NCBI RefSeq assembly: GCF_964194155.1
Contig: NC_135880.1
Location: 166,532,001 to 166,596,000 of the forward strand
Origin: Cetorhinus maximus
Taxonomy: Eukaryota
Direction: 5' to 3'
Length of the DNA stretch: 64,000 bases
Position 1 is the stretch's first letter, and the number at the start of each line of letters is the position of its first letter. Made by a program: the position numbers and the translations under genes. Positions 1 to 48,781 of the stretch are shown one piece after another. The notes under the pieces are model-generated. The model saw only the letters and a list, made by a program, of their open reading frames with translations, ran no database searches and had not been told where the DNA came from.

Positions 1-1370
1 ATGCACCTCCTCAGAGTGGATCAGCTGCCTGCCCCTTGCTTCCCAGCCGGAACTGGGAAGCAAGGCTTCCTGATTCACTCAGAATTTTTGTCCATTTAAC
101 ATCCATAGTGCCCATTACCTGCTCCAATCCCACCTGCTCATCCATATTAAAACTTTCCAGTTGGTTTCAGGACATGAAAGTGCAAATAAAGATAAATAAA
201 GCCACAAAAATGCAAACATTCCTTTGGATTTTATAAATAATAGCATTGAGTACAAGAACAAATAATAATAAATTTCTACTAGCATTATTTATGCCACAGA
301 GTACTGAGTAGAGTTTTGACTGCCCTCTTATTTCAAGGATGTTAAAGTCATTGAGAATATGCAGCATCGATACAACCGCACAATGATAGTCATAGAAACT
401 ATGAGGAGAGATTTGTGGTACAGAGCCTGCTGCTGATGGAATAGAGAACTGCAGGCATATAACACATTTTTAAAATTAAGGAGAGTTTTTTTCAGAGTGA
501 ACATTTGCTCTGATTAGGGAGCCAGTGATAAGAGAGTCATCAATTTAAAATTGTCAATGAGAATGGGGAGACAGGTTAGAGACTACTGTATAATTTAAGG
601 GGAACAATATATATATGAAACAGAGACACATACAGAGTTATGGGGGGAGTTGTGCACTGGGATTAGCTGGGGACTGTTGGAGCAGAGAGTGGAAGCCGAT
701 GATGATATTGAATGGTGGAGGAGACTGGGCGCCGATCTGGTGTAGATTTGCTCCTGTTTCTTTAAAGTCAGTTTTTGTTTTTGCTCCTGTTTCTTAATGC
801 TCTTATATTCTCATGTAAAGCTGGAATAGACACAGTGGACCAAATAGCATTAATAAGTACCAACTTAAAGCACAATTACCAACAGTCACATCGTTAAAAA
901 GGCCACTAGCAGATTGACAACAAATGGTTAAACCACAATATAGAAAATCAATTTTAGTGATAACAGATTCATAGGGAGGGAAACAGAACAGGGAGAACAA
1001 TGAGAGAGCAATGGGAAAAACAGTCCAAATAAAGGTTTTGCCCAAGAGCTGAGACTAAGATGAAAGCTGAGGAGTCTGCCATGAGGAAATTGAGGGAAAA
1101 AATGTAGTGGAAAATATTTAACGTGAGCTAAACATTTCAAAGAAGTTCGATTAAAACTATGGACAAAAGTGTTAAATGAAAACCAGAAAAAAATGACAAT
1201 GTGTATGAAGGATGAGAGGAGATAAATGTATTGCTGATCGATGCACTTATTCAATCATTCCACAAATTGTAAATGTAATAAGGATCCAGGGGGAGTGTCT
1301 CAACTGAAACGGCGCAAGAATCTCCAAGGGAAAGAGGTGGGACAAGTGATTTAAAAAAAAAGAGCTGCGA

Positions 1371-1405
1371 TGAGTCAGAGCAAAGGAGTAAAAACAGTAT
1401 ATAAA
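1371..1405 (+). promoter_or_regulatory. Relaxin copy A proximal promoter: AP-1 consensus TGAGTCA (1371-1377) and TATA box TATATAAA (1398-1405)
   Basis: Motifs read directly, about 110-145 bp upstream of the ATG, and conserved in copy B. Function is inferred. Confidence 0.6.
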
Positions 1406-1514
1406 GGGAGAGAGATCAGGCATACAGAAAACCACAGGGAGAGAGTCAGAGCAATATAGACATCTCACCAAAAGCCTGAGTACCAGTGAGGGAGGGAAAC
1501 ACTCGTGAGCTGAG

Positions 1515-1698
1515 ATGAAGTGTCTAGTGTGTGTCCTGGTAATCAACCTGCTCCTCACCTCCTTTCCCACTCCTATCTTATCCCTGTCTTTAAGGAGTGC
1601 GGAATCGACAATCAAATTGTGCGGTCGGGAGTTCATCCGAGCCATCATCTATACCTGTGGGGGTTCTCGTTGGAAGAGGCTCCTCGATAACCAGAACG
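1515..1698 (+). CDS. RLN: Relaxin copy A, coding exon 1 (signal peptide, B chain, start of C peptide)
   Basis: MKCLVCVLVINLLLTSFPTPILS-LSLRSAESTIKLCGREFIRAIIYTCGGSRW-KR: hydrophobic signal peptide, CG-x10-C B-chain pattern, relaxin RxxxRxxI cassette and dibasic site. Phase-1 donor G|GTGAGT at 1698/1699. Confidence 0.95.
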
Positions 1699-4319
1699 GT
1701 GAGTATTCAAAAAACAATCTCCCTTTGCTATGCCCCTGTCCAGGAAGTTGGCCGTTTTAGCATCATTGCAATCGAGATGTCTTAATGCTATTTATCGAGT
1801 CTCTCATTGAGTTAATAATAGTGATACTAGTTAGGCTATTGCAACTGGAATCATCTTATTTATCTAACGGACCCAATCTTCAAAATGACAGCGAGTATGA
1901 AAATAGCGAATGAGAAAATGTTTATGCCAATTTTATTTGCGAATGGCTGTCCCTCTTGTGGGGACAATGTACCTGTTATAAGCATATTATTAACATATCT
2001 CATGATGTAAAGAGTGTGTGGACTGCTGCCGTGTGGACAAGGGTGAGTACACATGCTGGAAACACAGAAACAATGCTGGTAACTTCTAAAAGACAAGTTA
2101 ACCTGAGGCTTGTTATCAGCACAGTTACTGTCAGGAGGGGACAGCTGACTTTCAATAGCTGCCTGGCCTGATATTCATTTCCAGGACTGTCAGTTCTTAT
2201 TTCAGATTCTACAGCATTGATGAGGGCTTTCTGGGTGGGGAGAGTTGGGTGCAGTCCTGTCAGTCAGCAGTGACTGTTTATTTGGAGTCACATCATTTAC
2301 CACAGAGCAAGGTTTCCTTGTTCATGGTGCAGGACTTTTCCTGGGTAAATCAATCAGCAAACGTCCTGATCACTTTATAGTGGAATCTGCTAGTGTTTTG
2401 ACATGATAGTGGCATATATTAGTTTAGTGTGAACTTCATTTAGTAAATTCTACACATTTCCGATAAACATTTTAAAATAACAAAGCCTTATTGTTGCTTC
2501 ACATTGTCACTATACTGCAGCTACTACCCACAGGATCGAACGCGGGAAGTGTGATGCGAAACTGAAGGCCAGAATTGGACCGCTGACTTTGAAGTAATGT
2601 CAGCAGATAAAATTCTGACAGCAAGGGTGACTCATTGCCAATACTGAAAAGATCCAATTCTCAGTTTGAGGAGTCATAGAGTACACTGCTAGGACCTGGT
2701 GAAATTCCACCTGACAGAGTTATACCACACCTGGAGTGCAGCTCAAACCTTCCAGGAATGGTTTCATAGCATGAAAGGAATGAAGCCATTCGTCCATCAT
2801 GCGTGCGCTGGCTCTTTGAAAGAGTCCCTTCCCACTCCCATATGTAAACCTCTACGCTACATCAATTGTCTCACACCTGTTGCCTTTGATATACTGGAGA
2901 TTTGGATGGGTCACCCAACTCCTGAGTTATACTTCCAGTTTCAAGGTGCTGTGTATCTATGTGTCTCTACAGATTCACAGAATGGTTACAGCACCGAAGA
3001 AGACACATTCAAAGTGTGAAAATAATACAGTTAAAGACAGATCTGTAATTCGAAAGAGGAATCTGAATGGCCAATAGTGTGGAGATGTTAATATAAAATG
3101 GTATAAACTTGTAAACCACTGCTTTATTGCGCTAACAATTCCCCTTTCAGGCAGTGGGAGGAGAGGTGGGAAATGCTAGGAGAATAGTTCTATGATTAAG
3201 CTGCTGGTAGAACAGTGAGTGTACGCATGTAGAAAGGTGGAAAGAGAATATCACCCACCTGACAACATTCCAGCATGTCAGCCCTGAACATTGAGAATGG
3301 TGACTGATAATGCAATCCCTGATCCATAGTGATTACAATGCAGCAAATTTAATATTGGTAATTATCAATGTTCTACTTCCATCAAACAGCACTGGCATCA
3401 CCACAGATGTTGTCAGACCTGGTGAGTTTTTCCAAAATTTTCTGTTTTTATTTCAGATTTCCAGCATCTGCAGAATTTTGCTTTTAGCACTGGGATGGTA
3501 TCAGTTTATCTAAGTTCTTTTCTGCTTTATTTTCTTTCCCATTCAGGATCCTGGCAATAATAGGAAGGAATGGTTTGAGATATTTGAAGGACTAGGCTGA
3601 AAAAAGGCAACAAACTGGATTGGAAAATTTGTTGAGACAAAGAAATTTCTGGTATAGATCCAGAAGCTGAAGTGCACGACCTGAATGCCAGGATTAGTGA
3701 CTGACTCCCATTCAGCAGGCAGCGACTAGAAACAGTTTGACTGTATCTAATGCAGTAAAAAAAAGCAGAATTTTCACCTGTCAAGCAGGGGTTCAAACCT
3801 TTTAAATCAAAAGTACAAATACAAAGTTCCCATTGGCAGGGGTGGGGATAGTCAGGGAATGATGAGGAGCAAAGAAAGGGCTACCTTCTAAGATTAAGAA
3901 TATATTTACTTGCCAATAGACTGCAATGTTTATCCAAAGATGTGTTAGAATGGATAGACTCTCTCATGAAGTTGCTCCTCTTGAGAATTGGTGTTCCATT
4001 GACCGGAATTTAACCAATTTTCTATCACAGCTGCAGAGTAACACAATTGTTTAACCAAACATTGATGGTCACTTAGAGATGGTTGTCAATTATTTCTCTG
4101 ACTATACAGCAATGTACATTTAATCGACTATATTTGTGTAGTCAAAATACAATGCAGCGCAATTAAGCAAGTGACTTTTGAGACTCCAAGGGCCATTGCT
4201 CTGCCCTAGTCAGAGGAGAGGAGGAGATGGCCATCTACTACCAGGACCGAGTGAACAATATAACTTCAATTTCATTAATCTGGTACATAGTCACAGGTGC
4301 AATTGTATTCCTGTTTTAG

Positions 4320-4666
4320 ATCCCTTCCAGACCTCAGCTGATAAAGACGACTTCAAGGAGATGGACAGCATGAAGAATCTTCAGAGAATGTTTGGCAATG
4401 ACAGGAACCAAGAAGTTGAGCTATCTTTTGTGGAGCAAGCGATCGACGAGTATTACAACCAGCACAATCAGATACCGGAGGATTTCATTGAGTACCTCCG
4501 CCAGATTGATGGAGGCAGCAATAACGACCCCGCATCTGCATTATCACAGATGCAGCATCTACCCTGGGCCAGATCCTTCAGGAAGAAAAGGGCAACAAAA
4601 CCAGGATTGTCAAGCAAATGCTGCTATAACGGCTGCACCAAAAAAGATATCAGCGTTCTTTGCTGA
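4320..4666 (+). CDS. RLN: Relaxin copy A, coding exon 2 (C peptide, RKKR site, A chain ATKPGLSSKCCYNGCTKKDISVLC)
   Basis: Acceptor ctgttttAG|AT is in frame with exon 1 (G+AT = Asp). A chain has the CC-x3-C-x8-C pattern. Spliced CDS is 531 nt, giving a 176-aa preprohormone. Confidence 0.95.
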
Positions 4667-4849
4667 AAACTATACATCTCTATAGATTATTCTATACACA
4701 TGGACTCTGCTTCAGTGAGATTTTAAACCATGTAGTCTATTAAACATCTCACAAACATGGAATAAGGCAAACGTAATTTACCTGTAACTTCTCGTATGGT
4801 CTATGTGACAGGCTTGTGTTCTTCATGCTGAATCTCTTCAAACCAATTA

Positions 4850-4855
4850 AATAAA
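4850..4855 (+). terminator. Probable polyadenylation signal of relaxin copy A
   Basis: AATAAA about 185 nt after the stop, followed by a GT/T-rich tract near 4895-4908. Confidence 0.6.
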
Positions 4856-5499
4856 ATGCAGCTGTAAAGGTTTCAACTCAATTTCTCAAGACAATTGTTT
4901 TTTTTTGTGAATAGTTTATTTAATTCATTCAAAATATTGAAACTTATTTCCCACTGAACACTGCCCACTAACACCTATGCACAAACTCTAAAAATGAGAT
5001 TCTAAAACTATCTAATCTTGGCAAATTTAGTGTGTATTTATGAATCCAGATTTAACATTTAACATAAGTGAAACCATATTAGCTGGAACAGTAAAGTATA
5101 ATTTGTAATGACTTCCTCCTGATAGGCAAGATCTGATTCAGGTGCTCCTCCTTTACAACAACAATAGCTCGGATTTATATAGCACCTTTAATAAATTTAA
5201 AGGCATCATCAAACAACATGCTAAATGGGTTTAACTATTATTTAGCCACAAAGGTGCTCCTGTGTGAGAGGAACAATACAAAATATAAGCTAAAAACAAT
5301 CATGTTATTAATTTCCAATGCATCCAATAATGCTGAACCCAATGAAGGCACTACAATTATCAGATACGCGTTTTCTAAAGCAAGATAAAATTATATAGGC
5401 TGAAAGCAGGTTTCATCACAAAAGCTTAATGCTCAGACTAAAATTAAAGCTTTGTTGTAGCATGATAGGGCGATTAAACTTATTATTCATATTCAGCAA

Positions 5500-5760
5500 A
5501 TTCTCATGTAAACACGAAGAAAGACCTGAAAAATCGGGGCTGTGTTTAGAACAGCTGAGTAAGTGTGATTTGATAAAGGTGTATGAAATTATGAAAGGAT
5601 ACAACACAATAGATGAAACAACAGTTGATCTGTTCTGATTGAGAGATCTAGAATAAGGAAGCATAGCAATGGGAATAAAATGGAGTTTAGCACAGGGTAT
5701 AGGATAATGTTTTTTGCACAGTGTGTTACAAGATTGTGGAATGCACTACCAAAGTAACAA
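5500..5760 (+). mobile_element. Old CR1 LINE 3' fragment
   Basis: Degenerate ERL..LGL..LE..R.DLIKVYKIMKG motif (ORF 5429..5638). Confidence 0.6.
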
Positions 5761-5829
5761 CACCCAGCTCTACCTTACCTCCACCTCTTATGACCCCTTC
5801 ACTGTCTCTAACTTGTCACACTGTAAATT

Positions 5830-6340
5830 TCTTTCAAGTATTAAGAAAGCCGACACCATTGTCTTTGGTCACTGCCACAAACTCTAGGCCAAAGTCAACA
5901 TCTTGCTTCCTGGCAAATGTTGCGGATTGAACAACACCTTGGCGGTGTATCTAGCCCCGAGATGAGATTCTGACCGGATGTCTTTTCTAACACCAAAACT
6001 GCATAGGTCCAATACCGTAACAACGACCTCTACCCCTGCCTCAGCTATTTGCTGCAGAAACTCTCATCCATGTTATAGTTACCTTAGACCTGACTCCCCA
6101 GTGTTCTCCTGCCTGGTCCCTTCTTCCACTCTCCATAAACTTCAGCTCGTCCATGTTCTTCTGCCTGCATCCTAATTTGAACCAAGTCCCGTTTACCAAA
6201 TACCACTGTCCTTGCGACCCTACATTGACTCCATTTGCAGCAAGGCCTTCATTTTAAAATCCACATCCTAGTTTTCGAACCTCTTCATGATCTCGTCGAT
6301 CCCTATCTCTGTAACCTCCTCCAGCCCTACGACCCTCTGA
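5830..6340 (+). mobile_element. L2-type LINE 3' fragment (degenerate)
   Basis: Resembles the L2-like pieces at 38460-38790, 48600-49200 and 50400-50700 (e.g. cctacattgactcc...ttttaaaat, atctctgtaacctcctccagcc). Confidence 0.55.
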
Positions 6341-6829
6341 GAGTAAGCTGAAATTTCCATTGGTCTGGTACTCTCACTGTATCATACCCCAAAATAGCAC
6401 AAACATTTCTGTTGGCAGAGAAATTATTTTTCACTGACAACAGGAACTTATTTTCATACAGTGCCTAAAGGCACCACAGTATTGCAAGTGCTTCACAATG
6501 ACATGCATTCCTGAGTAGAATTAGGAGGGAAAATTGAGGAAAGAACTGAAAGCATGTTTGATGAGGTAGATTTCTGGGATGTTTTTCAAAGCGGAGAAAG
6601 AGTTTCAGAGTTTGGACCCAGGTAGGAGAATGGAGAGTGTGAGCAAGGTGAATAGGATAGAATTAAAACAAACAATGTGAGACCACTTCCAAAAGCTTGC
6701 ACTTCAGTCCATATAGAAAGCCATAATTTAAAAGCACCTACTTAAGTTTTAAATACGACAATACAAAAATTGTCTGCCTGATTGATAATGAGGAAGAAAG
6801 TTGTAGTTTGGAGATTATCAGGAACTAGG

Positions 6830-9800
6830 AACTAAATTAAAGAACAGGTCCTTAAGGGTTATAATCTCTGGATTACTACCCGAGCCACGTGCAAATTGGC
6901 AGAGGGACGCGAGAATAAGGAAAGTAAACACATGGCTAAAGGAGTGGTGCGGGAAAGAGGGGTTCCATTTCGTGGGGCACTGGCATCAGTATTGGAACAG
7001 GAGGGATCTGTACCGTTGGGACGGTCTCCACCTGAACCAATCTGGGACCAATGTTCTAGCGAAAAGGGTAAATAGGTTGGTCAACAGGACTTTAAAATAG
7101 AAATTGGAGGGGGGAGAGAAGGGTAAAACTCCAAGAAGTATGACTAATGGGAAACAAAGCAGCAGGTTAGTGTGTGGAGGGGTGGATTCAACTTCATGGA
7201 AAATTATGAAAAAACTGAAAAGAAAAGAGAGCCCAGGAGAGGCTATTAAAGTCTCCAGAACACAAAATAGGACAGAGTGTTTGGAAAGGGCTAGGAATCT
7301 AACTTCAAGCACAGCAGATAAAGGGACAACAATGAGAAAGGGGACGGGAAATACAGAACTGAAGGCGTTGTATCTGAATGCACACAATATACAAAATAAG
7401 GTAAATGAGCTTGTGGCGCAGATTGAAATTGGCAGGTATGATGTGGTGGGCATTACGGAGACATGGCTGCAAGGGGATCAGGACTGGGAGCTAAATATCC
7501 AAGGATAGACATCCTATAGAAAGGATAGGCAGGTTGGCAGATGGGGTGGAGTTGCTTTGTTAGTAAGAAATGAAATTAAATCGATAGCAAGAAATGATGT
7601 TGGGTCAGATGATGTAGAATCTGTGTGGGTAGAGTTGAGAAACTGCAAAGGTAATAAAAACATAATGGGAGTTATATACAGGCCTCCGAACAGTAGTCAG
7701 GATGTGGGGCACAAGATACACCAGGAGATAGAAAAGGTGTGTAAGAAAGGCAAGGTTACAGTGATCATGGGGGATTTCAATATGCAGGTAGACTGGGAAA
7801 ATCAGGTTGGTAGTGGATCCCAAGAAAAGGAACTTGTGGAATGTCTACGAGATGGCTTTTTGGAGCAGCTTGTGGTGGAGCCCACTAGGGAACAGGCAAT
7901 TCTAGATTTAGTGATGTGTAATGAGGCAGATTTGATAAGGGAGCTTAAGGTGAAGGAACCCTTAGGAGGAAGTGACCATAATATGTTAGAATTTGCCCTG
8001 CAATTTGAGAGGAAAAACCTGGAATCAGATGTAACAGTGTTACAGTTGAATAAAGACAACTACAGAGGCATGAGTGAGGAGCTGGCCAGAATTGACTGGG
8101 AGATGAGCCTAGCAGGAAAGACAGTGGAACAGCAATGGCAGGAGTTTCTGGGAGTAATTTGGGAGACACAGCAAAAATTCATCCCTAGGAAGAAGAAGCA
8201 TACTAAAGGGAAGACGAGGCAACCATGGCTGACAAGGGAAGTCAGGGACAGCATAAAAAATAAAGAGAAAGCATACAATGCGGCGAAGAGCAGTGGGAAA
8301 CCAGGGGATTGGGAAGCCTACAAAGACCAACAGAGGACAACTAAAAAAGAAATAAGGAGGGAGAAGATTAAATATGAGGGTAAACTAGCCAGTAATATAA
8401 AAGAAGATTGCAAGAGTTTTTTTAGATATATAAAGGGTAAGAGAGAGGCAAAAGTGGACATTGGGCCGCTGGAAAATGACCCTGGAGAAGTAGTAGTGGG
8501 GAACAAAGAAATGGCGGAGGAACTGATTAGTTACTTAGTGTCAGCCTTCACAGTGGAAGACACGAGTAGCATTCCCAAAGTTCAAGAGAGTCAGAGGGCA
8601 GAAGTGAGTATGGTGGCCATTACCAAGGAGAAGGTGCTAGGAAAACTGAAAGTTCTGAAGGTTGATAAATCACCTGGACCAGATGGATTACACCCCAGAG
8701 TTCTGAAGGAGATAGCTGAAGAGAGAAGGCAGTCAGGCAAAAAATGGGAAATTACAGGCCGATTAGCCTGATGTCGGTCGTTGGTAAGATTTTAGAGTCC
8801 ATTATTAAGGACGAGATTTCAGAATACTTGGAAGTGCATGGTAAAATCGGGCAAAGTCTGCTTGGTTTCATCAAGGGGAGGTCATGCCTGACAAATCTGT
8901 TAGAATTCTTTGAGGAGGTAACAAGTAGGTTAGACAAAGGCCAGCCAATGGATGTTATCTACTTGGACTTCCAGAAGGCCTTTGACAAGGTGCCACACAG
9001 GAGGCTGCTCAGTAAGATAAGAGCCCATGGTGTTAGAGGCAAGGTACTAGCATGGATAGAAGATTGGCTGTCTGGCAGGAGGCAGAGAGTGGGGATAAGG
9101 GGGTCCTTCTCAGGATGGCGGCCAGTGACTAGTGTAGTTCCGCAGGGGTCAGTGTTGGGACCACAACTTTTCACTTTATACATTAATGATCTAGATGAAG
9201 GAACTGAGGGCATCCTGGCTAAGTTTGCAGATGATACAAAGATAGGTGGATGGACAGATAGTATTGAGGAGGTGGGGAGGCTGCAGAAGGATTTGAACAG
9301 GTTAGGAGAATGGGCAAAGAAGTGGCAGATGGAGTACAACGTGGGGAAGTGTGTGGTCATGCACTTTGGTAGGAAGAATAGAGGCATGGACTATTTTCCA
9401 AAATGGGGAGAGAATTCAGAAATCTGGAGTGCAAAGTGTCTTGGGAGTCCTAGTCCAAGATTCTCTTAATGTTAACTTGTAGGTTGAGTTGGTAGTTAGG
9501 AAGGCAAATGCAATGTTGGCATATATTTCGAGAGGACTAGAATATAAAAGCAGGGATGTGCTGCTGAGGCTTTATAAGGCTCTGGTCAGACCACATTTAG
9601 AATATTGTGAGCAATTTTGGGCCCCGTATCTCAGGAAGGATGTGCTGGCCCTTGAGAGGGTCCAGATGAGATTCACGAGAACGATCCCAGGAATGAAAGG
9701 CTTAACATATGAGGAACGTTTGAGGACCCTGGGTCTATACTCGATGGAGTTTAGAAGGATAAGGGGGGATCTGATTGAAACTTACAGAATACTGAAAGGC

Positions 9801-10149
9801 CTGGATAGAGTGGACGTGGGGAAGATGTTTCCATTAGTAGGAGAGACTAGGACCCGAGGGCACAGCCTCAGAGTAAAGGGAAGACCTTTTAGAACAGAGA
9901 TGAGGAGAAACTTCTTTAGCCAGAGAGTGGTGAATCTATGGAATTCATTGCCACAGAATGCTGTGGAGGCCAGGTCATTGAGTGATTTAAGACCGAGATA
10001 GATAGGTCTTGATTGGTAAGGGGATCAAAGGTTATGGGGAGAAGGCGGGAGAATGGGGTTGAGAAACTTATCAGCCGTGATTGAATGACGGAGCAGACTC
10101 AATGGGCCGATTGGCCTAATTTCTGCTCCTATGTCTTATGGTCTTATGG
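6830..10149 (+). mobile_element. Young 5'-truncated CR1 LINE in the palindrome spacer: end of ORF1 (SGNH esterase), ORF2 APE endonuclease + RT, disrupted
   Basis: ORF1 tail IISGLLP...DGLHLN. ORF2 motifs YLNA, GITETWL, GDFN, SDH, YLDFQKAFDKVPH, PQGSVLGP and FADD. Lesions: stop at 7506-7508, an internal deletion near 8722 relative to the 55.4-57.7 kb copy, and a frameshift near 9400. 3' tail (tcttatgg)n. Confidence 0.95.
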
Positions 10150-10795
10150 ATTGCTGAAAGATATCAATGGACTAGTTCAAGTGAGCAGAAACGTGGCAAA
10201 TATAATTTAATCCAAAGCAGCATGAGGGGCTCTTCATCCTTTGAGGCAAAGATGTCCATGTTCATCATCTGGAGTGTTTGGTAGGGATCCCGTTGGTACG
10301 TTGGTGACTGCTAAGGCCGATCTGCACCCAGAAGGCTCTGCTGAAAATGATAGCTGGAATCCAATGGTTAAACTATGATGAGAGATTAAACAAACTAGGG
10401 AGGTTGTACTCCATGGAATTTAGAAGGTTAAGGGGTGATTTTATTAAAGTTCTCAAGATATTGAGGGGAGTAGATAGAGCAGTTTGTGAGAAACTATCCC
10501 CACTAGTTGGGAAGCCTAGGCCTAGGGGGCATAATCAAAAATTTAGAGCCAGGTCTTCTAGGAGTGTAAAGGATGGTGGAGCTTTGGACCTCTATTCTGC
10601 AAATGGCAACTGAAGCTATTCTAATTGTTAATTTTAAAACTGAGATCGATAGATTTTTTGCTGGTCAAAGGTATTAAGGGATATAGGGCAAAGGCAAGTA
10701 TATGGAGTTAGGTTATTGATCACCCTAACCATTAAATAGCAGAATGGGGTTAAGGGGCTAAATGGCCTATTATTGATCTTATGTTCCTACATTCC
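10150..10795 (+). mobile_element. Older CR1 LINE 3' fragment(s)
   Basis: ORF 10347..10613 ERLNKLG.LYSMEFRRLRGD; CR1-type 3'UTR ggggctaaatggccta. Confidence 0.75.
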
Positions 10796-11144
10796 TAACG
10801 TGAATTCACTGACCTTGACCATTCTTAATGATATTTGAACTCCTTGACACTAGCCTCATAACTGTGACCGTGCAGCTATCTGCTTCCCTGCCTCCCCTCC
10901 CTAAATAGGACGGAATTCATGCATCACATTCCCCATAAACAGAATGAAACAGGAAGAGACTGCAGTAGACTTTGCCTGCATTATCTACCTCAGATTCCAA
11001 GGCCATAGAATGGACTCACATTGCATTTCACACTCCTTATCACCAGTCTGACATATTTCTCTTCTGAAAGGGATACCACTCCCTAAATATAGCTTGTTTG
11101 AGGCCGTAGGCTGTCATGTAGAGTTGTGGCTGGTTTCTTGGTTT

Positions 11145-11491
11145 TCAGCAAAGAACGCTGATATCTTTTTTGGTGCAGCCGTAAAAGCAGCATTTGTTTG
11201 ACAACCCTGGTGATGTTGTCCTTTTCTTCCTGAAGGATCTGGCCCAGGGTAGGTGCTGCATCCGTGATGATGCAGATGCGGGGTTGTTATTGCTGCCTCC
11301 ATAAATCTGGCGGAGGTACTCAATGAAATCCTCCGGTATCTGATTTTGCTGGTTGTAATACTCGTCGATCACTTGCTCCACAAAAGATGGCTCAACTTCT
11401 TGGTTCCTGTCAATGCCAAACATTCTCTGAAGATTCCTCATGCTGTCCATCTCCTTGAAGTTGTCTTTATCAGCTGAGGTCTGGAAGGGAT
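11145..11491 (-). CDS. RLN: Relaxin copy B, coding exon 2 (C peptide, RKKR, A chain TTSPGLSNKCCFYGCTKKDISVLC)
   Basis: 347 nt, same length and acceptor as copy A exon 2. All A-chain cysteines are intact. TGA at 11147-11145. Confidence 0.95.
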
Positions 11492-13666
11492 CTAAAACAG
11501 GAATACAATTCCATCTGTGAATATGTGCCAGATTAATGAAATTGAAGTTATATTGTTCACTCTGTCCTGGTTGTATATGGCCATCTCCTCCTTTCCTCTG
11601 TCTAGGGCAGAGAAACAGCCCTTGGACTTTCAAAAGTCACTTGCTTAATTGGGCTGTATTGTGTTTTGACTACACAAATATAGTCGATTAAATGTACATT
11701 GCTGTATAGTCAGAGAAATAATTGACAGCCATCTCTAAGTGACCATCAATGTTTAGTTAAACAATTGTGTTACACTGCAGTTGCGATAGAAAATTGGTTA
11801 AACTCCAGTCAATGGAACACCAATTCTCAAGAGGAGCAACATCATGAGAGAGTCTATCCATTCAAACACGTGTTTGGATAAACATTGCAGTCTATTGGCA
11901 AGTAAATATTTTCTAAATCTTAGAAGGTAGCCCTTTCTTTGCTCCCCGTCATTCCCTGACTATCCCCACCCCTGCCAATGGGAACTTTCATGTTTGTGGT
12001 TTTGATTTAAAAGGTTTGATCCCCTGCTTGACAGGTGAAAATTCTGCTTTTTTTTTACTGCATTAGATACAGTCAAACTGTTTCTAGTCGCTGCCTGCTG
12101 AATGGGAGTCAGTCACTAATCCTGGCATTCAGGTCGTGCACTTCAGCTTCTGGATCTATACCAGAAATTTCTTTGTCTCAACAAATTTTCCAATCCAGTT
12201 TGTTGCCTTTTTTCAGCCTAGTCCTTCAAATATCTCAATCCATTCCTTCCTATTATTGCCAGAATCCTGAATGGGAAAGAAAATAAAGCAGAAAAGAACT
12301 TAGATGAACTGATGCCATCCCAGTGCTAAAAGCAAAATTCTGCAGATGCCGGAAATCTGAAATAAAAACAGAAAATTTTGGAAAAACTCACCAGGTCTGA
12401 CAACATCTGTGGTGATGTCAGTGCTGTTTGATGGAAGTAGAACATTGATAATTACCAATATTAAATTTGTTGCATTGTAATCACTATGGATCAGGGATTG
12501 CATTATCAGTCACCATTCTCAATGTTCAGGGCTGACATGCTGGAATGTTGTCAGGTGGGTGATATTCTCTTTCCACCTTTCTACATGCGTACACTCACTG
12601 TTCTACCAGCAGCTTAATCATAGAACTATTCTCCTAGCATTTCCCACCGCTCCTCCCACTGCCTCAAAGGGGAATTGTTAGCGCAATAAAGCAGTGGTTT
12701 ACAAGTTTATAGCATTTTATATTAACATCTCCACATTATTGGCCGTTCAGATTCCTGTTTCGAATTACAGATCTGTCTTTAACTGTATTATTTTCACACT
12801 TTGAATGTGTCTTCTTCAGTGCTGTAACCATTCTGTGAATCTGTAGAGACACATAGATACACAGCACCTTGAAACTGGAAATATAACTCAGGAGTTGGGT
12901 GACCCATCCAACTCTCCAGTATATCAAAGGCAACAGGTGTGAGACAATTGATGTAGCGTAGAGGTTTACATATGGGAATGGGAGGGGACACTTTCAAAGA
13001 GCCATCACAAGCATGATGGGCGAATGGCTTCATTCCTTTCGTGCTATGAAACCATCCCTGGAAGGTTTGAGCTGCACTCCAGGTGTGGTATAACTCTGTC
13101 AGGTGGAATTTCACCAGGTCCTAGCAGTGTACTCTATGACTCCTCAAACTGAGAATTGGATCTTTTCAGTATTGGCAATGAGTCACCCTTGCTGTCAGAA
13201 TTTTATCTGCTGACATTACTTCAAAGTCAGCGGTCCAATTCTGGCCTTCGGTTTCGAATCACACTTTCCGGGTTCGATCCTGTGGGTAGTAGCTGCAGTA
13301 TAGTGACAATGTGAAGCAACAATAAGGCTTTGTAATTTTAAAATGTTTATCGGAAAGGTGTAGAATTTACTAATTGAAGTTCACACTAAACTAAAATATG
13401 CCGCTATCATGTCAACACACTCGCAGATTCCACTATAATGTGATCAGGACATTTGCTGATTGATTTACACAGGAAAAGTCCTGCACTATGATCAAGGAAA
13501 CCTTGTTCTTTGGTAAATGATGTGACTCCAAATAAACAGTCACTGCTGACTGACAGGACTGCGCCCAACTCCACCCACCCAGAAAGCCCTCATCAATGCT
13601 GTAGAATCTGAAATAAGAACTGACAGTCCTGGAAATGAATATCAGGCTAGACAGCATTTGAAAGCC

Positions 13667-14433
13667 GAAATACCTGGAAAAACTCAGCAGGTCTAGCAGC
13701 TTCGGCAGAGAAGAGCAAAGTTGACGTTTCGAGTCCTCATGACCCTTCAACAGAACTAAGTAAAAATAGGAAAGTGGTGAAATATAAGCTGGTTTAAGGG
13801 CGTGGGGGTGGGGGGCAGTGTGTGGGGTGGGGGGAGGGTGGGGTTGTTGGGACAAGCAAGCAGTGAAAGGAGGAGATAACCAAAAGGTGTCACAGACAAA
13901 AGGACAAAGAGGTGTTGTAGGCGGTGATATTATCTAAAAGAATGTGCTAATAAAGAGTGGAAAGCAGGACAAGCAAGGTAGCTCTAGTGACAATTGTTTC
14001 CACAATTGTAGATCTTGAACTCCCTCCTCCATCCCCACTCCTTTCCGTTTCTTCTCCCTCCTTTTTGTTTTTTCCAATAATTTATATAGGTTTTTCTTTT
14101 CCTACCTATTTCCATTATTTTTAAATGTATTCCACCCATCGTTTATTTCACCCCACCCCCACTAGAGCTACCTCTTTGTTCTTTTGTCTGTGACATCTTT
14201 TGGTTATCTCCTCCTATCACTGCTTGCTTATCCCTACAACCCCAAGCCCCCCTTCTCCACCACCCCCACTTAAACCAGCTTATATTTCACCCCTTTCCTA
14301 TTTTTACTTAGTTCTGTTGAAGGGTCATGAGGACATTTGCTCTGCTCCGCCGATGCTGCCAGACCTGCTGAGTTTTTCCAGGTATTTCTGTTTTTGTTTT
14401 GGATTTGCAGCATCCGCAGTTTTTTGTTTTTAT
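13667..14433. mobile_element. Fold-back Penelope-like non-autonomous element inserted only in the intron of relaxin copy B; 14-bp TSD
   Basis: AGCATTTGAAAGCC is duplicated at 13653-13666 and 14434-14447; a single diverged copy lies at about 2146-2160 in copy A. About 13667-13990 and 14160-14400 are inverted copies of each other. Hammerhead-like motif present. Confidence 0.85.
13719..13757 (-). ncRNA. Minimal type-I hammerhead-ribozyme-like motif (core variant CUGUUGA)
   Basis: Minus strand reads AGTT-CTGTTGA-A-GGGTC-ATGAG-GACTC-GAAA-CG-TC-AACT: 4-bp stem I, 5-bp stem II, palindromic ACGU stem III, GUC site. A6 is replaced by U, so activity is uncertain. Confidence 0.6.
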
Positions 14434-14892
14434 AGCATTTGAAAGCCAGCTGTCCCCTCCTGACAGTAACTGTGCTGATAACAAGCCTCATGTTAACTTG
14501 TCTTTCAGAAGTTACTTGAGCCGCTCTGTTTCCAGCATTTGTACTCACCCTTGTCCACACGGCAGCAGTCCACACACTCTTTACATCATGAGATATGGTA
14601 ATAATATGGTTATAACAGGTATATTGTCCCCACAAGAGGGACAGCCATTCGCAAATAAAATTGGCATAAACATTTTCTCATTCGCTATTTTCATACTCAC
14701 TGTCATTTTGAAGATTGGGTCCGTTAGATAAATAAAATGATTCCAGTTGCAATAGCCTAACTAGTATCACTATTATTAACTCAATGAGAGACTCGATAAA
14801 TAGCATTAAGACATCTCGATTGCAATGATGCTAAAACGGCCAACTTCCTGGACAGGGGCATAGCAAAGGGAGATTGTTTTTTGAATACTCAC

Positions 14893-15076
14893 CGTTCTGG
14901 TTATCGAGGAGCCTCTTCCAACGAGAACCCCCACAGGTATAGATGATGGCTCGGATGAACTCCCGACCGCACACTTTGATTCCCGGTTCCGCACTCTTTA
15001 AAGACTGGGATAAGATAGGAGTGGGAAAGGAGGTGAGGAGCAGGTTGATTACCAGAACACACACTAGACACTTCAT
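14893..15076 (-). CDS. RLN: Relaxin copy B, coding exon 1 (signal peptide, B chain QSLKSAEPGIKVCGREFIRAIIYTCGGSRW)
   Basis: 184 nt with a G|GTGAGT donor, RxxxRxxI cassette and KR site; same structure as copy A. Confidence 0.95.
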
Positions 15077-15222
15077 CTCAGCTCACGAGTGTTGAGCCTG
15101 GGCTTCTCTGTAAACCTCGCAGTAAGTGTTCCGCTCCCTCACTGGTACTCAGGCTTTTGGTGAGATGTCTATATTGTTTTGACTCTCTCCCTGTGGTCTT
15201 CTGTATGCCTGATCCCTCTCCC

Positions 15223-15257
15223 CTTATATACTGTTTTTACTCCTTTGCTCTGACTCA
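15223..15257 (-). promoter_or_regulatory. Relaxin copy B proximal promoter: TATATAAG (15230-15223) and AP-1 site (15251-15257)
   Basis: Paralogous to 1371-1405, with one base different at the end of the TATA box. Confidence 0.55.
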
Positions 15258-18200
15258 TCGCAGCTCTTTTTTTTTTTAAATCACTTGTCCCACCTCTTTC
15301 CCTTGGAGATTCTTGCGCCGTTTCAGATGAGACACTCCCCCCGGATCCTTATCACATTTATAATTTGTGGAATGATTGAATATGTGCATCGATCAGCAAT
15401 ACATTTATCTCCTCTCATCCTTCATACACTTTGTCATTTTTTTCTGGTTTTCATTTAACACTTTTGTCCATAGTTTTAATCGAACTTCTTTGAAATGTTT
15501 AGCTCATGTTAAATATTTTCCACTACATTTTTTCCCTCAATTTCCTCATTGCAGACTCCTCAGCTTTCATCTTAGTCTCAGCTTTTGGGCTAAACTTTTA
15601 TTCGGACTGTTTTTCCCATTGCTCTCTCATTGTTCTCCCTGTTCTGTTTCCCTCCCTATGAATCTGTTATCACTAAAATTGATTTTCTATATTGTGGTTT
15701 AACCATTTGTTGTCAATCTGCTAGTGGCCTTTTTAACCATGTGACTGTTGGTAAATGTGCTTTAATTGGTACTTATTAATACTATTTGGTCCACTGTGTC
15801 CATTTCAGCTTTACATGAGAATATAAGAGCATTAAGAAACAGGAGCAAGAACAAAAACTGACTTTTAAGAAACAGGAGCAGTTCTACACCAGATTGGCAC
15901 CCAGTCTCCTCCACCATTCAATACAATCATGACCGATCTTTGGCTTCAACTCTCTGCTCCAACAGTCCCCAGCTAATCCCAGTGCACAACTCCCCCCATA
16001 ACTCTGTATGTGTCTCTGTTTCATATATATATATATATCACATTGTTCCCCTTAAATTATACAGTGGTCTCTAACCTGTCTCTCCATTCTCATTGACAAT
16101 TTTAAAATGATGACTCTCTTATCACTAATCAGAGCAAATGTTCACTCTAAAAAAAACTCTCCTTAATTTTAAAAATGTGTTATATGCCTGCAGTTCTCTA
16201 TTCCATCAGCAGCAGGCTCTGTACCACAAATCTCTCCTCATAGTTTCTATGCCTGTCATTGTGCGGTTGTATCGATGCTGCATATTCTCAATGACTTTAA
16301 CATCCTTGAAATAAGAGGGCAGTCAAAACTCTACTCAGTACTCTGTGACATAAATAATGCTAGTAGAAATTTATTATTATTTGTTCTTGTACTCAATGCT
16401 ATTTATAAAATCCGAAGGACTGTTGGCATTTTTGTGGCTTTATTTATCTTTATTTGCACTTTCGTGTCCTGAAACCTACTGGAAAGTTTTAATATGGATG
16501 AGCAGGTGGGATTGGAGCAGGTAATGGGCACTATGGATGTTAAATGGACAAAAATTCTGAGTGAATCAGGAAGCCTTGCTTCCCAGTTCCGGCTGGGAAG
16601 CAAGGGGCAGGCAGCTGATCCACTCTGAGGAGGTGCATTGGCATTTTCAACATGTTAATGAGGCTGGCAGTCTCATATTTGCAGGTTTGGCTGTGGCCGA
16701 CTGGGTTTCCCAGGCCTTGGGAATGCAAATGCTGCACCAAGGCGAGGATGGCCACATGGAGAAGGCAAGTGCCTTTGCAGCTGTCCTTGTGGGCCAGGAG
16801 GAGCAGAAATGCTTCCTCTCGCCCCCACAGTCACCCGCCCATTAGAATCCTCAAATGCCACACCCGGTCCCCTGGAATTGGACCTCCCTAGAATCAAAGT
16901 TAGACACCCTGGAAAGAGGGCTTGGGCCTAACTGGTCTTCACAGTGACCCCTGCATTCCTGGAAGGCAAGCCTGTCAGTCAGGCTGATTTCTGGGCAGGA
17001 AATCTGTCTGGACTGATTTGTTGCACCCATCAAGACCAGAAGTTAAAACTCCAAAGCATATGGAAAAACCCCGACTTCCAGATTTCATATATGCTAAAGG
17101 ATTTCACCAATCCTCCCCTTCCTCCCCAGCCCACTCCCAATTCATTGCCAAGTAGAACGTGCACCTCCTAGGTCTCATTGTGAAGTGGGGTGAATTAAAT
17201 TGAGAATTTAATGAAACATTTGCGAAAACTCCTGTAGCTATGGCACAAACACCTCATTGAGGCTAAATTCCACATTCCTGGTCTTTCTCACTCCACTGAG
17301 TCACGTGATTTGAGGTTAAACTCTCACTTGTCCACTCAAGCATAAAACGCAGTTTACAAAACAATTGGAAATTACATTCATTCAAAGAACAGTTGATCAC
17401 ATTGTTGTGTAACTAATTGGATTTCAACAGCCCACAAATAAGGCACCAAATAAACAGGTTTAAGCAACACAAATGAAGCAACTTACACTTCAAATGCAAT
17501 GAAATAAACAAAAGATGGTGGAAAAGGTGTCAAGGTAAGTTGAAAACTGAAATCATCGAGGGCACATTCTCACCCTTTCTGCTGTTCTCCCCACTATCTC
17601 CAGGAGTTATTTGAGGCCTTTCCTGGTGAGACAAGTGGCAAAAATTCAATCCTCCTAAATAGATGAGGTGGAGGTTCAGGCTGGCTTGGGGTCTTTCTGC
17701 TCAAACACACAATGCTCACACAGCCCGAAAAAGGGATATTATTAAGGGGAAAAGGGTTGGCTGTGAGCCCTGCTTCAGTTAATGCCAGGCTATGAATGTA
17801 ATCATCCGGAATAAGACAAAGGCCTTGTTTGCAAGTGGGCAACCATTCTGGAGAGGGATGGGAATTATTGATCCATTGTAAGAGGCAGGAAGGTGTTTGT
17901 AGATACGGTAAATCCTAAGAAAGCGCACTAGATGGTATGATTGATGAGAGTAGAGGGTATGGCAGTTGCCATTGCTATTCATAGAAAGGCAGTGGAAGGC
18001 ACCACAATGGCCCTAATGGAGAATGTTGAGAGGTACCGGGGGCCTTGATTATGGAGGAAACAATCCTTGGGTAGCAGAAGGAGAGAGGGCAAGCAGAGCA
18101 AATGCAGAGGGGGTAAAGATCGGGTGGTATTTGTAGGAGGCAGAGGAGATAGAACTTGGAATGATGGGGTGAAGGGAGACAGGTGAGTGGAGCTCAGGAA

Positions 18201-21831: not shown

Positions 21832-21929
21832 ATGGCTGGAGACTTTAAGATGGCTGGAGACTGTAAGATGGCTGGAGACTGTAAGATGGCTGGAGACGGT
21901 AAGATGGCTGGAGACTGTAAGATGGCTGG
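21832..21929 (+). repeat. 18-bp minisatellite (ATGGCTGGAGACTGTAAG) x about 5.4
   Basis: Five near-perfect units (two single-base variants) plus a partial unit. Confidence 0.95.
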
Positions 21930-32896: not shown

Positions 32897-32921
32897 TTTA
32901 TTCAATTTTGGATAATTTATT
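32897..32921 (-). terminator. Two AATAAA polyadenylation signals of PLGRKT
   Basis: TTTATT on + at 32897-32902 and 32916-32921, about 120-140 nt past the stop. Confidence 0.55.
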
Positions 32922-33038: not shown

Positions 33039-33160
33039 TTATATTTGACTGAAAAATATACTCCGGGCCCTCCTGGCTTTCTCGATACTTTCGAAGGTTG
33101 GCACTCCCTTTGGCATGTCAAGTAGGCTTCGCTCTGTATCAATTATGTTCTCCGCCTCAT
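33039..33160 (-). CDS. PLGRKT: PLGRKT last coding exon (DEAENIIDTERSLLDMPKGVPTFESIEKARRARSIFFSQI*)
   Basis: Acceptor atcttccAG|AT, 122 nt, phase-compatible with the upstream exon. Motif EAE.I...E...L..P.G..TFESIEKAR is characteristic of PLGRKT/C9orf46. Confidence 0.93.
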
Positions 33161-36395: not shown

Positions 36396-36505
36396 CTTTC
36401 ATTCTTATCATTAATGTTCCGTATGCCAGATCAAATTGATAGGCAAGAATGAAGCTTAGTGGAACGATAGGAAACAGAAATACCGGTGCCCTCCTCTTCA
36501 TGGCT
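36396..36505 (-). CDS. PLGRKT: PLGRKT internal coding exon (AMKRRAPVFLFPIVPLSFILAYQFDLAYGTLMIRMK)
   Basis: 110 nt with tgcAG| and |GTAAG boundaries; second hydrophobic segment P.VPLSFI..YQ.DL.YGTL..RMK. Confidence 0.95.
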
Positions 36506-40457: not shown

Positions 40458-40588
40458 CCTAATGTTAAACCAATAGCTGTAAGTCCAAAAAAACTTCCAA
40501 AGTACTTTATAAATTCACGGGACCATGCGATCTGCATTGCCACTTGTCTCTGTCTCATTTCATCTTGCATCAGAATCTGCCTCTGCAG
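40458..40588 (-). CDS. PLGRKT: PLGRKT internal coding exon (LQRQILMQDEMRQRQVAMQIAWSREFIKYFGSFFGLTAIGLTLG)
   Basis: 131 nt with ttttacAG| and |GTAAGT boundaries; hallmark RQ.AMQIAWSREF.KYFG.FFGL. The first coding exon was not found in the window. Confidence 0.96.
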
Positions 40589-47939: not shown

Positions 47940-48443
47940 GACATGTTGAAGCTGTTCATGTTGCGTTCATCGGGACACTTTGCAAGAATACCAATTATAA
48001 GGGGAAGACAGCAATTTACACTGTATAAGATGAGAGTGCTGATTGGTTGGCAAGTGGACTCAGATTGGTAGAGGCATTGCCAAGGAGAATGCACCATTTG
48101 ATGGTGACTAACAGTTAACTGCCAAGCATTGTTTGAAATTTAAACCAGGCAGCTTGACTTTGATTGATCAAGGCATTGTCCTGAGGAATGAGTCAGCGAT
48201 TGGCTGTCACTTATTTTGTTTCAGCTGAGCAAGCTGCCCGGTTTAAATTTCAGACAATGCTTGGCAGTTAACCATGAGTCACCATCAACTGGTGCATTCT
48301 CCATGGCAATTCCTCTACCAATCAGAGTCCGCTTGCCAACCAATCACCAATCTTATCTCATAAACTATAAATTGTTGTTTTCTCCTTATATTGGTATTCT
48401 TATGAAGTATCCTGATGAGTGCAAGATGAAAACCTTTGACATC
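47940..48443. mobile_element. Second family of fold-back Penelope-like element with outward-facing degenerate hammerhead motifs
   Basis: Arms at about 47940-48156 and 48231-48440 are inverted. The right end reads CTGATGA-GTGCAAGAT-GAAA-ACCTTTGAC; the left arm has a more decayed copy. Confidence 0.7.
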
Positions 48444-48781
48444 TTCCCGATGTTTAACTGGAGAAAATTCGATCACATCCAAAACTGGATATTGGACATG
48501 CAGCCTGACAAGGCCGGGGCAGTGGAGGAGTTTGAGAATGCTGGTGGAGAAGGACACTTTAAGAAAATACTACAGCTTCAGGTGTTTTAATTGCGGCCTC
48601 ACCTAAAGGGCAACAACATCTGAAGACACAGAAGGTTTTGTACATGTATACTGACAACACCTAGCTCGACTTCTCCACCAGCATTCACAAACCCCTCCAC
48701 TGCCCCGGCCTTGTCAGGCTGCATGTCCAATATCCAGTTTTGGATGTGATCGAGTTTTCTCCAGTTAAACATTGGGAAGAT
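48441..48781. repeat. 112-bp inverted duplication (48441-48552 / 48670-48781) of L2-derived sequence
   Basis: Arms are nearly identical; ORFs 48216..48590+ and 48599..48784- share IFPMFNWRK.DHIQNWILDMQPDKAGAVE. Confidence 0.9.

Follow-up and report, generated by a model that had tools for sequence, protein, structure and literature searches.

An inverted pair of relaxin genes at the RLN locus of the basking shark, probably older than the split from the white shark

Background

In the available portions of the published reports, the RLN genes of mammals are described as duplicated locally at relaxin family locus B (PMC2805637, PMC5459885, PMC3310001), and the resulting duplicates as being under positive selection (PMC551602, PMC3449138). 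The human RLN cluster is placed between INSL6 and PLGRKT (PMC5459885), and an exon 1 conversion tract between RLN1 and RLN2 has been described in chimpanzee and bonobo (PMC3971578). The neighbours given for the RLN3 locus (RFLCI) are TNPO2/RFX1/ASF1B (PMC2805637). As far as the accessible text goes, the chicken “RLN3” peptide is no orthologue of human RLN3, and RXFP1 responds to it at least 10-fold better than RXFP3 does (PMC9676923); the RFLB relaxin of the teleosts studied is summarized as a single-copy gene in which no sites are under positive selection (PMC2805637, PMC3449138). Non-mammalian RFLB relaxins are usually labelled relaxin-3-like. In the accessible parts of these sources, RLN is treated as evolving fast and duplicating locally in mammals, whereas the gene of fish is described as single and conserved (PMC3449138, PMC2805637).

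In this work, a 64,000-nucleotide stretch of basking shark (Cetorhinus maximus) DNA, referred to below as the window, was analysed by self-alignment, protein comparison and phylogenetic tests. It contains two convergent relaxin genes, copy A and copy B, which a previous sequence-only reading had interpreted as a palindromic and lineage-specific duplication at the RLN locus.

Results

Two intact relaxin genes in an inverted repeat

The features of the locus are collected in Table 1. Both copies consist of two exons with GT/AG splice sites and encode 176 residues in a 531-nt frame. They share the signal-B-C-A precursor layout with basic cleavage sites (KR at 54-55 and RKKR at 149-152; the signal peptide was judged by eye), the six mature-chain cysteines (C36, C48, C162, C163, C167 and C176) and two more cysteines within the signal peptide, so that the description of two intact genes, with 184-nt and 347-nt exons, canonical splice sites, six cysteines and KR/RKKR sites, holds for each of them. 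The Pfam Insulin domain (PF00049) is matched with 33 and 30 bits by the two copies, against a cut-off of 23. The proteins differ at 20 amino acids and are identical to the basking shark RefSeq models XP_078414669.1 (copy A) and XP_078414682.1 (copy B, 100% match); both genes are thus already annotated, and the genes themselves are not new.

Table 1. Features of the relaxin locus and of the neighbouring gene, in window coordinates
Feature	Position	Strand	Remarks
Arm A	1..4670	+	self-BLAST; runs off window start
TATA-like box, copy A	1398..1405	+	from sequence alone
Copy A exon 1	1515..1698	+	184 nt; signal peptide, B chain, KR site
Copy A exon 2	4320..4666	+	347 nt; C peptide, RKKR site, A chain, stop
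Overlapping ATTAAA/AATAAA poly(A) signal, copy A	4846..4906	+	AATAAA at 4850; T run downstream; normal-looking 3' end
Inter-arm spacer	4671..11140	.	6.47 kb; without further relaxin sequence
Broken LINE in spacer	6807..10148	+	GDSL-like ORF1 remnant, endonuclease, reverse transcriptase
First canonical AATAAA downstream of copy B	10440..10445	-	700 nt past stop; within antisense LINE fragment
Arm B	11141..16638	-	self-BLAST; true far end hidden since arm A leaves window
Copy B exon 2	11145..11491	-	C peptide, RKKR site, A chain, stop
781-bp repeat insertion, intron of copy B only	13653..14447	.	internal inverted halves; 14-bp target-site duplication 13653-13666 / 14434-14447
Copy B exon 1	14893..15076	-	signal peptide, B chain, KR site
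37 nt of 5' leader, in B, missing from A	15094..15130	-	short direct repeat on both sides
TATA-like box, copy B	15223..15230	-	as for copy A
DUF2368 gene, last coding exon	33039..33160	-	poly(A) hexamers at 32921 and 32902
DUF2368 gene, internal coding exon	36396..36505	-	part of three-exon set
DUF2368 gene, internal coding exon	40458..40588	-	most upstream exon located

Self-BLAST of the window identified two inverted blocks: 1-2155 versus 16638-14439 (93.6% identity) and 2149-4670 versus 13664-11141 (95.8%). The proposed arm length of at least 4.7 kb is borne out, with 4.67 kb as a lower bound because arm A begins at the window edge. The term “palindrome” fits the tail-to-tail inversion but not a near-perfect palindrome: the structure is an inverted repeat around a spacer whose broken LINE is presumably of the CR1 type, and the arms differ at 170 of 4632 aligned bases (3.67%). 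Sex-chromosome-type palindromes homogenized by arm-to-arm conversion have near-identical arms, above 99%, whereas the basking shark arms are 96.3% identical. Non-coding divergence between the arms is uneven (bin variance p 0.0006, with identical runs of 178-217 nt within 2564-3791), which fits exchange between them and suggests that such exchange was only occasional. The window contains no N bases, its 64 kb gave 0 matches to structured RNA families of Rfam, and there is no third relaxin copy or fragment, since tblastn with five relaxin proteins returned only the four exons. An intact, RLN-locus duplication in the basking shark is almost certainly real.

Locus identity

At a distance of 18 kb, copy B is neighboured by a DUF2368 gene of the same orientation, which we take to be PLGRKT; JAK2 and CD274 fall outside the window. 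Two pattern scans of the window for its first coding exon yielded only repeat-derived or unconvincing candidates. No other gene was found between copy B and the DUF2368 gene among 27 of the 116 listed open reading frames; these 27 further long frames matched only reverse transcriptase and, below threshold, one repeat, in a scan that short exons could escape.

The Xenopus “Relaxin family locus B” protein aligns over its full length, including the C peptide (31%, E 5e-28), and the best non-shark matches, among those listed, include “prorelaxin H1” of gar and eel. Taking together the DUF2368 neighbour, the position of the human cluster and the Xenopus alignment, copies A and B are very probably co-orthologues of the vertebrate RLN gene at relaxin family locus B. 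The best PDB match of the B chain is the relaxin-3 B chain (E 1e-9). An assignment to RLN3 (RFLCI), as the RefSeq label “relaxin-3-like” would imply, is not supported by the location: the neighbour is DUF2368, and no RLN3-locus genes were present among the scanned frames.

Promoters and 3' ends

Each arm carries a TATA-like box, which does not by itself establish the “complete promoter” attributed to it. The 37-nt difference between the leaders is likely a deletion in copy A. The similarity of the two copies ends 4 nt past the stop codons, so that their 3' UTRs are unrelated. In copy A, AATAAA plus a T run is located 184 nt past the stop in sequence of 32% GC; of 300-nt samples drawn from the window, 0.7% show this pattern. 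Copy B has no canonical poly(A) hexamer over 700 nt after its stop. No displaced ancestral 3' UTR for copy B was detected in the spacer or the rest of the window, and the two 3' flanks are without similarity.

Divergence of the mature chains and predicted function

The mature B and A chains accumulated 12 non-synonymous changes at 123 sites (9.8%), compared with 99 of 2595 in the intron (3.8%; Fisher p 0.004), and they also exceed the signal plus C peptide in non-synonymous change (p 0.011). At the amino-acid level, the contrast between mature chains and C peptide of the pair falls short of significance (p 0.22). Among 125-nt segments of non-coding sequence, 2.8% are as diverged as the mature chains. 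Gene conversion could have lowered intron divergence and so be an alternative source of the contrast between chains and intron. An excess of non-synonymous change over the whole gene was dropped, because dN/dS (0.055/0.028) does not exceed 1 significantly (p 0.17). That the genes are intact was likewise dismissed as a weak proof of function: under neutral drift, the probability of an intact frame is 0.19 if half the divergence is counted and 0.03 if all of it is.

The differences between the mature peptides are confined to five residues in the B-chain N-terminal arm and five in the first half of the A chain; the signal peptide, B-chain residues 36-53 and A-chain residues 166-176 show no amino-acid changes. 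Both B chains retain R38, R42 and I45, which form the R-x-x-x-R-x-x-I/V receptor-binding cassette as defined in the available portions of bioRxiv 10.1101/2022.01.22.477343 and PMC12702675, and both copies keep the C-terminal RW. By analogy with the family and with the A chain purified from the sand tiger shark, whose first residue is at the equivalent position, the preprorelaxins would lose the signal peptide and be cleaved at KR and RKKR, giving a B chain and an A chain of 24 residues joined by three disulfides. Given the common cassette and C-terminal RW, both peptides are most likely ligands of RXFP1, and they may additionally activate RXFP3-type receptors. We infer that the ten mature-residue differences would tune potency or selectivity, with the receptor class unchanged.

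Relaxin copies in other sharks

Among 13 shark species with matches, five have from 2 to 9 distinct relaxin proteins and eight have one. The RefSeq models number nine in sevengill (one isoform dropped), six in epaulette shark, three in cloudy catshark and two in small-spotted catshark; these counts refer to protein models, not genomic DNA, and exact gene numbers may differ. The view that non-mammalian vertebrates usually have one gene applies to teleosts, for which a single rln copy is given in the accessible text (PMC2805637), but not to sharks, where several species have more than one, so that the basking shark pair is not exceptional. No ray or skate orthologues were named among the 120 of 427 matches listed.

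In the whole-protein tree, shark relaxin copies group by species. In all 11 within-species pairs tested, divergence is higher in the mature chains than in the C peptide; when conserved copies of different species are paired, this is so in 1 of 36 cases, although the pairs are not independent. Several shark lineages thus appear to have multiplied relaxin separately, with the hormone part changing faster than the rest. This comparative pattern of repeated duplication and faster mature chains did not appear in the literature searched.

Comparison with the white shark

Copies A and B and the white shark protein form a 100/100 clade within sharks in the protein tree, which bears out the independence of this duplication from the primate RLN1/RLN2 event. 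Restriction to the basking shark was not upheld: an A+B clade that excludes the white shark is disfavoured, with p-AU of 0.043 for the whole protein, 0.040 for exon 2 and 0.057 for exon 1, these values being borderline (0.039-0.057) and the groups picked after viewing the alignment. In the exon 1 tree copy B joins the white shark (95/89), and in the exon 2 tree copy A does (93/88). At sites where the white shark matches one copy, this is B at 3 of 3 in exon 1 and A at 11 of 14 in exon 2 (p 0.029). The derived states held in common fit the mosaic at five of five sites, two in exon 1 and three in exon 2; the pattern thus comprises five polarised residues, and at one of these, position 80, the outgroups are mixed (7/11). 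At position 155, the sand tiger A chain shows the ancestral state. The white shark protein itself is a single model without a signal peptide, which may be damaged or collapsed.

A protein that is B-like in exon 1 and A-like in exon 2 points to a duplication that is probably older than the split between basking and white sharks, for which no date was found in the available parts of the literature searched. Conversion in the white shark line could instead have made the mosaic, with the basking shark arrangement unflipped.

Discussion

The observations would be reconciled by the following history. Before the basking/white shark split, a parent gene co-oriented with PLGRKT would have given rise to an inverted copy truncated just past the stop codon, and the two copies would then have diverged, fastest in the mature chains. 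A later crossover between the inverted introns would have flipped the spacer and swapped the A-chain exons, leaving copy B with the parent promoter and exon 1 and the daughter exon 2, and copy A with the daughter exon 1 and the parent exon 2 and 3' UTR. A single inversion of this kind would explain both the white shark mosaic and the normal-looking 3' UTR of copy A; we give the crossover itself an even chance. Copy B does have the ancestral orientation in that it is oriented like the DUF2368/PLGRKT gene, but the view that it is simply the ancestral copy is not supported, as the poly(A) signal adjoining the stop sits on copy A. For the explanation as a whole, an RLN co-orthologue pair of pre-split origin rearranged by an intron crossover, we estimate a probability of about 0.6.

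A duplication in the basking shark only, with B as the untouched parent, A as a new inverted copy and the white shark pattern as homoplasy under fast evolution, seems rather unlikely to us. It accords with the 96% identity of the arms, the one white shark protein among the matches listed, the shared orientation of B and the DUF2368 gene, and fast mature chains that favour parallel changes. It requires, however, five reversions to the outgroup residue sorted by exon, it meets p-AU of 0.040-0.057 for the A+B clade, and a simple fold-back copy would keep the native 3' UTR on B, yet the poly(A) signal is on A. High identity need not mean a young pair: at the epaulette shark mutation rate of 7e-10 per generation (PMC10587355), 3.5% divergence corresponds to 1.3e7 to 1.3e8 generations. 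That the assembly placed two haplotypes of a single gene side by side, one of them inverted, is hardly credible; the two RefSeq models do lie adjacent at one locus, but the arm divergence is 13.6 times the reported basking shark heterozygosity of 0.27%, which makes mis-joined haplotypes unlikely, and the 20 amino-acid differences, the private 781-bp insertion, the unrelated 3' flanks and the absence of N gaps from the window also speak against them.

It is also unlikely that one copy is redundant, silent or weakly expressed and drifting, so that a gene pair would exist without a two-hormone system. Candidates for such a copy are B, with its 700 nt free of a canonical poly(A) signal, or A, with the leader deletion in its promoter; read-through from a weak 3' end over the spacer could even yield fold-back double-stranded RNA silencing the pair. 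The p of 0.19 for an intact frame and a whole-gene dN not below dS agree with drift, but the signal peptide and the two chain segments named above are unchanged while changes cluster beside them above the intron rate, TATA-like boxes and splice sites are kept in both copies, and B can have a longer UTR that uses the AATAAA at 10445. We consider it very improbable that the extra shark relaxins are ancient, with conversion in the C-peptide region mimicking species-specificity and the basking shark pair part of an old array. When the B and A chains are taken by themselves, 10 divergent copies of sevengill, small-spotted catshark and epaulette shark can form a clade without rejection (p-AU 0.58), and all 10 have E at 157 and F at 175; the C peptide rejects this clade (p-AU 2e-60), the whole-protein tree groups copies by species, eight of 13 species have one protein, and both basking shark copies lack E157 and F175.

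More tentatively, sharks may have evolved RLN clusters of their own repeatedly where mammals made INSL4, INSL6 and RLN1/2, and the hormone chains may have been under positive selection in four or more lineages; in lamniform sharks, the inverted layout may allow an intron crossover to re-pair B- and A-chain exons, so that an inversion, possibly still polymorphic, would toggle two heterodimeric-hormone pairs. An exon swap, if real, would offer a simple route to new chain combinations for a two-chain hormone. Sharks comprise egg-laying and several live-bearing modes, and they appear to repeat the RLN diversification, which would provide an independent test of its drivers. The basking shark pair is a tractable case, with two peptides, one cassette and ten different mature residues. 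Assays of shark relaxin and “relaxin-3-like” labels may mix several genes.

Like the mammalian locus B cluster (INSL6, INSL4, RLN2 and RLN1 beside PLGRKT), the basking shark pair is a local RLN duplication at the same locus. Human INSL4 is probably likewise inverted, tail to tail with RLN2. The basking shark event differs from the mammalian cluster in being independent, in its inverted, 96% alike arms and in the signs of a reciprocal A-chain exon swap, and, unlike INSL4 and INSL6, both copies retain a B-chain core of the RLN3 type, with the same cassette in each. An RLN3-like B chain and a long C peptide with shared motifs also characterize the non-mammalian RFLB relaxins (teleost rln, Xenopus RFLB and chicken “RLN3”), whereas the single teleost rln contrasts with two copies and faster mature chains in the basking shark. 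Among elasmobranchs, the relaxins of dogfish and skate were reportedly also subjects of purification papers. The sand tiger shark entry P01349 records one peptide and, unlike the basking shark, no gene pair; its A chain of 24 residues has the same start (equivalent of 153) and matches copy A at 18/24 and copy B at 19/24 positions. In the other multi-copy sharks, as in the basking shark, copies group by species and mature chains are more diverged than the C peptide, but there one conserved copy stands beside strongly changed ones, whereas copies A and B have each changed to a moderate degree.

Inverted relaxin gene pair and its locus

Self-comparison of the window, which contains no N, identified two long inverted blocks forming arms of at least 4.67 kb (arm A is cut off by the first base of the window). 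Each arm carries one two-exon relaxin gene with GT/AG splice sites and an open frame of 176 codons; the genes converge, and their similarity stops 4 nt past the stop codons. The sequence-only reading of two intact inverted relaxin genes is thus borne out by the inverted blocks, exon sizes, splice sites and open frames. Its term "palindrome" is too strong for an inverted repeat that is only 96% alike, and the "complete promoter" that it ascribed to each copy comes down to a TATA-like box, which is present. No third relaxin copy was found in the window by tblastn with five relaxin proteins.

Positions of features in the window
Feature	Strand	Position	Remark
Copy A, coding exons	+	1515-1698, 4320-4666	184 nt + 347 nt
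Copy B, coding exons	-	15076-14893, 11491-11145	184 nt + 347 nt
Inverted block, outer	+/-	1-2155 vs 16638-14439	93.6%
Inverted block, inner	+/-	2149-4670 vs 13664-11141	95.8%
Spacer		4671-11140	6.47 kb
Codon of residue 24, copy A	+	1584-1586	L
LINE in spacer		6807-10148	broken
Sister LINE, inverted		55434-57746	92-96% identity to spacer LINE, 45 kb away
Repeats with internal inverted halves		13661-14394, 34636-34850, 47943-48786, 51422-54210	common terminal motif
Further occurrences of that motif		3398-3486, 12327-12415	
Inverted pair		51422-52012 / 53637-54210	94%, flanks reverse-transcriptase fragment
Tandem repeat		21832-21929	18-nt unit, 5.4 copies, 96%, within stop-free frame
DUF2368 gene, exons	-	40588-40458, 36505-36396, 33160-33039	

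The stop-free frame of the tandem repeat matched no family above cut-off. About 100 nt of the sister LINE is missing from the spacer copy; besides the arms, these two LINEs could serve as a substrate for inversion.

The pair is very unlikely to represent two haplotypes of one gene: the arms show 170 differences over 4632 aligned sites, 13.6 times the heterozygosity of the species (0.27%, PMC13044535), arm B alone carries a 781-bp insertion bounded by a 14-bp target-site duplication, and the 3' flanks are unrelated. The copies differ at 25 coding bases and 20 residues; just 3 of the codon changes are synonymous.

Annotations exist for both genes: the copy A protein is identical to XP_078414669.1, and exon 2 of copy B matches XP_078414682.1 at 100%, both being RefSeq models of Cetorhinus maximus labelled relaxin-3-like. 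Both copies exceed the Pfam Insulin cut-off, and the nearest solved structure to the B chain is human relaxin-3. At a distance of 18-26 kb, copy B shares its strand with three exons of a DUF2368 gene, which we take to be PLGRKT; the first coding exon of that gene was not found in 40588-64000, so the intron after it probably exceeds 23 kb or the exon is unlike expectation. The human RLN cluster sits between INSL6 and PLGRKT (PMC5459885). The entire precursor, C peptide included, can be aligned to Xenopus "Relaxin family locus B" (RFLB). Non-mammalian RFLB peptides resemble RLN3, and the chicken peptide, described as preferring RXFP1, is no orthologue of human RLN3 (PMC9676923). In view of the DUF2368 neighbour, the RFLB alignment and this resemblance, the relaxin-3-like label is misleading. 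In the sand tiger shark, the purified relaxin A chain is as long as those of the basking shark copies, begins at the same position and shares 18/24 residues with copy A and 19/24 with copy B.

Duplication history

In the white shark, one protein was found (XP_041041366.1, our P0006), with 150 residues and no signal peptide; possible readings of it are gene damage, a faulty model or one member of a pair. At B-chain position 46 it has D in place of Y, as in the divergent cloudy catshark copies. Its distances to A and B are unequal: where it fits one copy only, this is B at 3/3 sites in exon 1 and A at 11/14 in exon 2 (p 0.029). With 11 conserved shark proteins as reference for polarisation, it has two derived residues in common with B (exon 1) and three with A (exon 2), without conflicts. 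It joins B in the exon 1 tree (support 95/89) and A in the exon 2 tree (93/88; 14 rows each). Keeping A and B together gave borderline p-AU values of 0.057 for exon 1, 0.040 for exon 2 and 0.043 for both, for groups picked after alignment. From this site pattern and the exon trees, the duplication is probably older than the basking/white shark split, contrary to the lineage-specific event proposed earlier, and the first exon of B was probably once paired with the second exon of A. At the mutation rate of the epaulette shark (PMC10587355), the non-coding A/B divergence corresponds to 1.3e7 to 1.3e8 generations, a span that does not require a young pair.

The 3' ends agree with such a former pairing. 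Copy A has overlapping ATTAAA/AATAAA hexamers 180-184 nt past the stop and then a T run, all within sequence of 32% GC; 0.7% of 300-nt stretches sampled from the window show such a pattern. No canonical hexamer occurs within 700 nt after the copy B stop. Copy B had been proposed to keep the ancestral orientation, and it is indeed co-oriented with the DUF2368 gene (taken here as PLGRKT), but the normal-looking 3' end is on A. Crossing over within the inverted pair of introns would flip the spacer and exchange exon 2, together with the adjoining 3' flank, between the copies, and a single such event could account jointly for orientation, UTR and mosaic. Non-coding sites diverge unevenly (p 0.0006), and the intron contains identical runs of 178-217 nt, as expected under arm-to-arm exchange. 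An identical protein pattern would result from conversion on the white shark branch, so the direction of the mosaic is tentative; judged from the sequences, an exon swap by inversion is probable.

Divergence of the hormone chains

A and B diverge by 3.8% across the intron and by 3.0% in upstream sequence. Non-synonymous changes occupy 0/50 sites in the signal peptide, 10/240 in the C peptide and 12/123 (9.8%) in the B and A chains, an excess over the intron (Fisher p 0.004) and over signal plus C peptide (0.011); 2.8% of 125-nt non-coding windows diverged as much. Residues 36-53 of the B chain, including the R38-R42-I45 cassette and terminal RW, and 166-176 of the A chain are the same in both copies. 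Whole-gene dN over dS (p 0.17) and the amino-acid contrast for this pair (p 0.22) were not significant. The chance of a neutral copy remaining intact is 0.19 over half the divergence and 0.03 over all of it. The pattern suggests diversifying selection around a fixed binding core; it falls short of proving that both genes function, and a two-hormone system is a candidate reading. In a model of RXFP1 (bioRxiv 10.1101/2022.01.22.477343), B-chain binding is to the leucine-rich repeats, and A-chain contacts are limited and may involve the linker, so the A/B differences would be expected to tune rather than switch the receptor.

Residue 24, likely the first of the B chain, is Q in copy B and 13/13 conserved outgroup proteins and L in copy A, which therefore could not form an N-terminal pyroglutamate there; L also occurs in the divergent small-spotted catshark copy.

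Comparison with other relaxin duplications

Homologue searches and cluster look-ups yielded complete or nearly complete proteins from 13 species of shark, eight with one distinct relaxin protein and five with more: basking shark (2), small-spotted catshark (2), cloudy catshark (3, in 8 accessions), epaulette shark (6) and sevengill shark (9, or 10 with an alternative isoform). Counts for the other sharks come from protein records, which may include isoforms, so gene numbers are approximate; equal-sized contigs and near-consecutive accessions point to one locus in each. No named ray or skate protein was among the 120 of 427 matches listed.

The copies cluster by species in a 29-row tree (omitting isoform P0013 and P0281-P0283; P-numbers are our handles for RefSeq shark relaxins). 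Divergence is greater in the mature chains than in the C peptide for 11/11 within-species pairs tested, nine with p < 0.01 (the pair of the basking shark and one of the sevengill pairs being non-significant), versus 1/36 between-species pairs of conserved copies; pairs in both counts have branches in common. A grouping of ten divergent copies (P0015, P0016, P0017, P0024-P0028, P0031, P0032), drawn from sevengill, small-spotted catshark and epaulette shark, into one clade is rejected by the C peptide (p-AU 2e-60) and not by the mature chains (0.58), a signal of convergence or of old paralogues hidden by conversion. All ten have E at A-chain 157 and F at 175, again through convergence or descent from an old paralogue; an F likewise stands last but one in the A chain of human relaxin-2 (alignment with PDB 6rlx). 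The second copy of the small-spotted catshark, P0015 (XP_038659871.1), bears the RefSeq label INSL5, yet clusters with the RLN copy of that species; its RKKR site is lost.

A relaxin expansion has reportedly been described in rabbit. No report of duplicated shark relaxin genes was found in the open literature, weak evidence of novelty because most elasmobranch relaxin work and the main reviews are in subscription journals, outside its scope. The one-gene norm assumed earlier for non-mammals holds for teleost rln and fails for five of the 13 sharks. The basking shark pair is real and consists of two annotated genes; duplication at the RLN locus is already known, and recurrent in sharks. Most deserving of attention are the recurring expansion in sharks, with its fast-changing hormone chains, and the likely exchange of exons through an inversion. 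Teleost rln is single-copy with zero positively selected sites (PMC2805637, PMC3449138), whereas local RLN duplication with positive selection is well documented in mammals (PMC551602, PMC2805637, PMC3310001, PMC3971578, PMC3449138), including an exon-1 conversion tract among the RLN duplicates of apes (PMC3971578).
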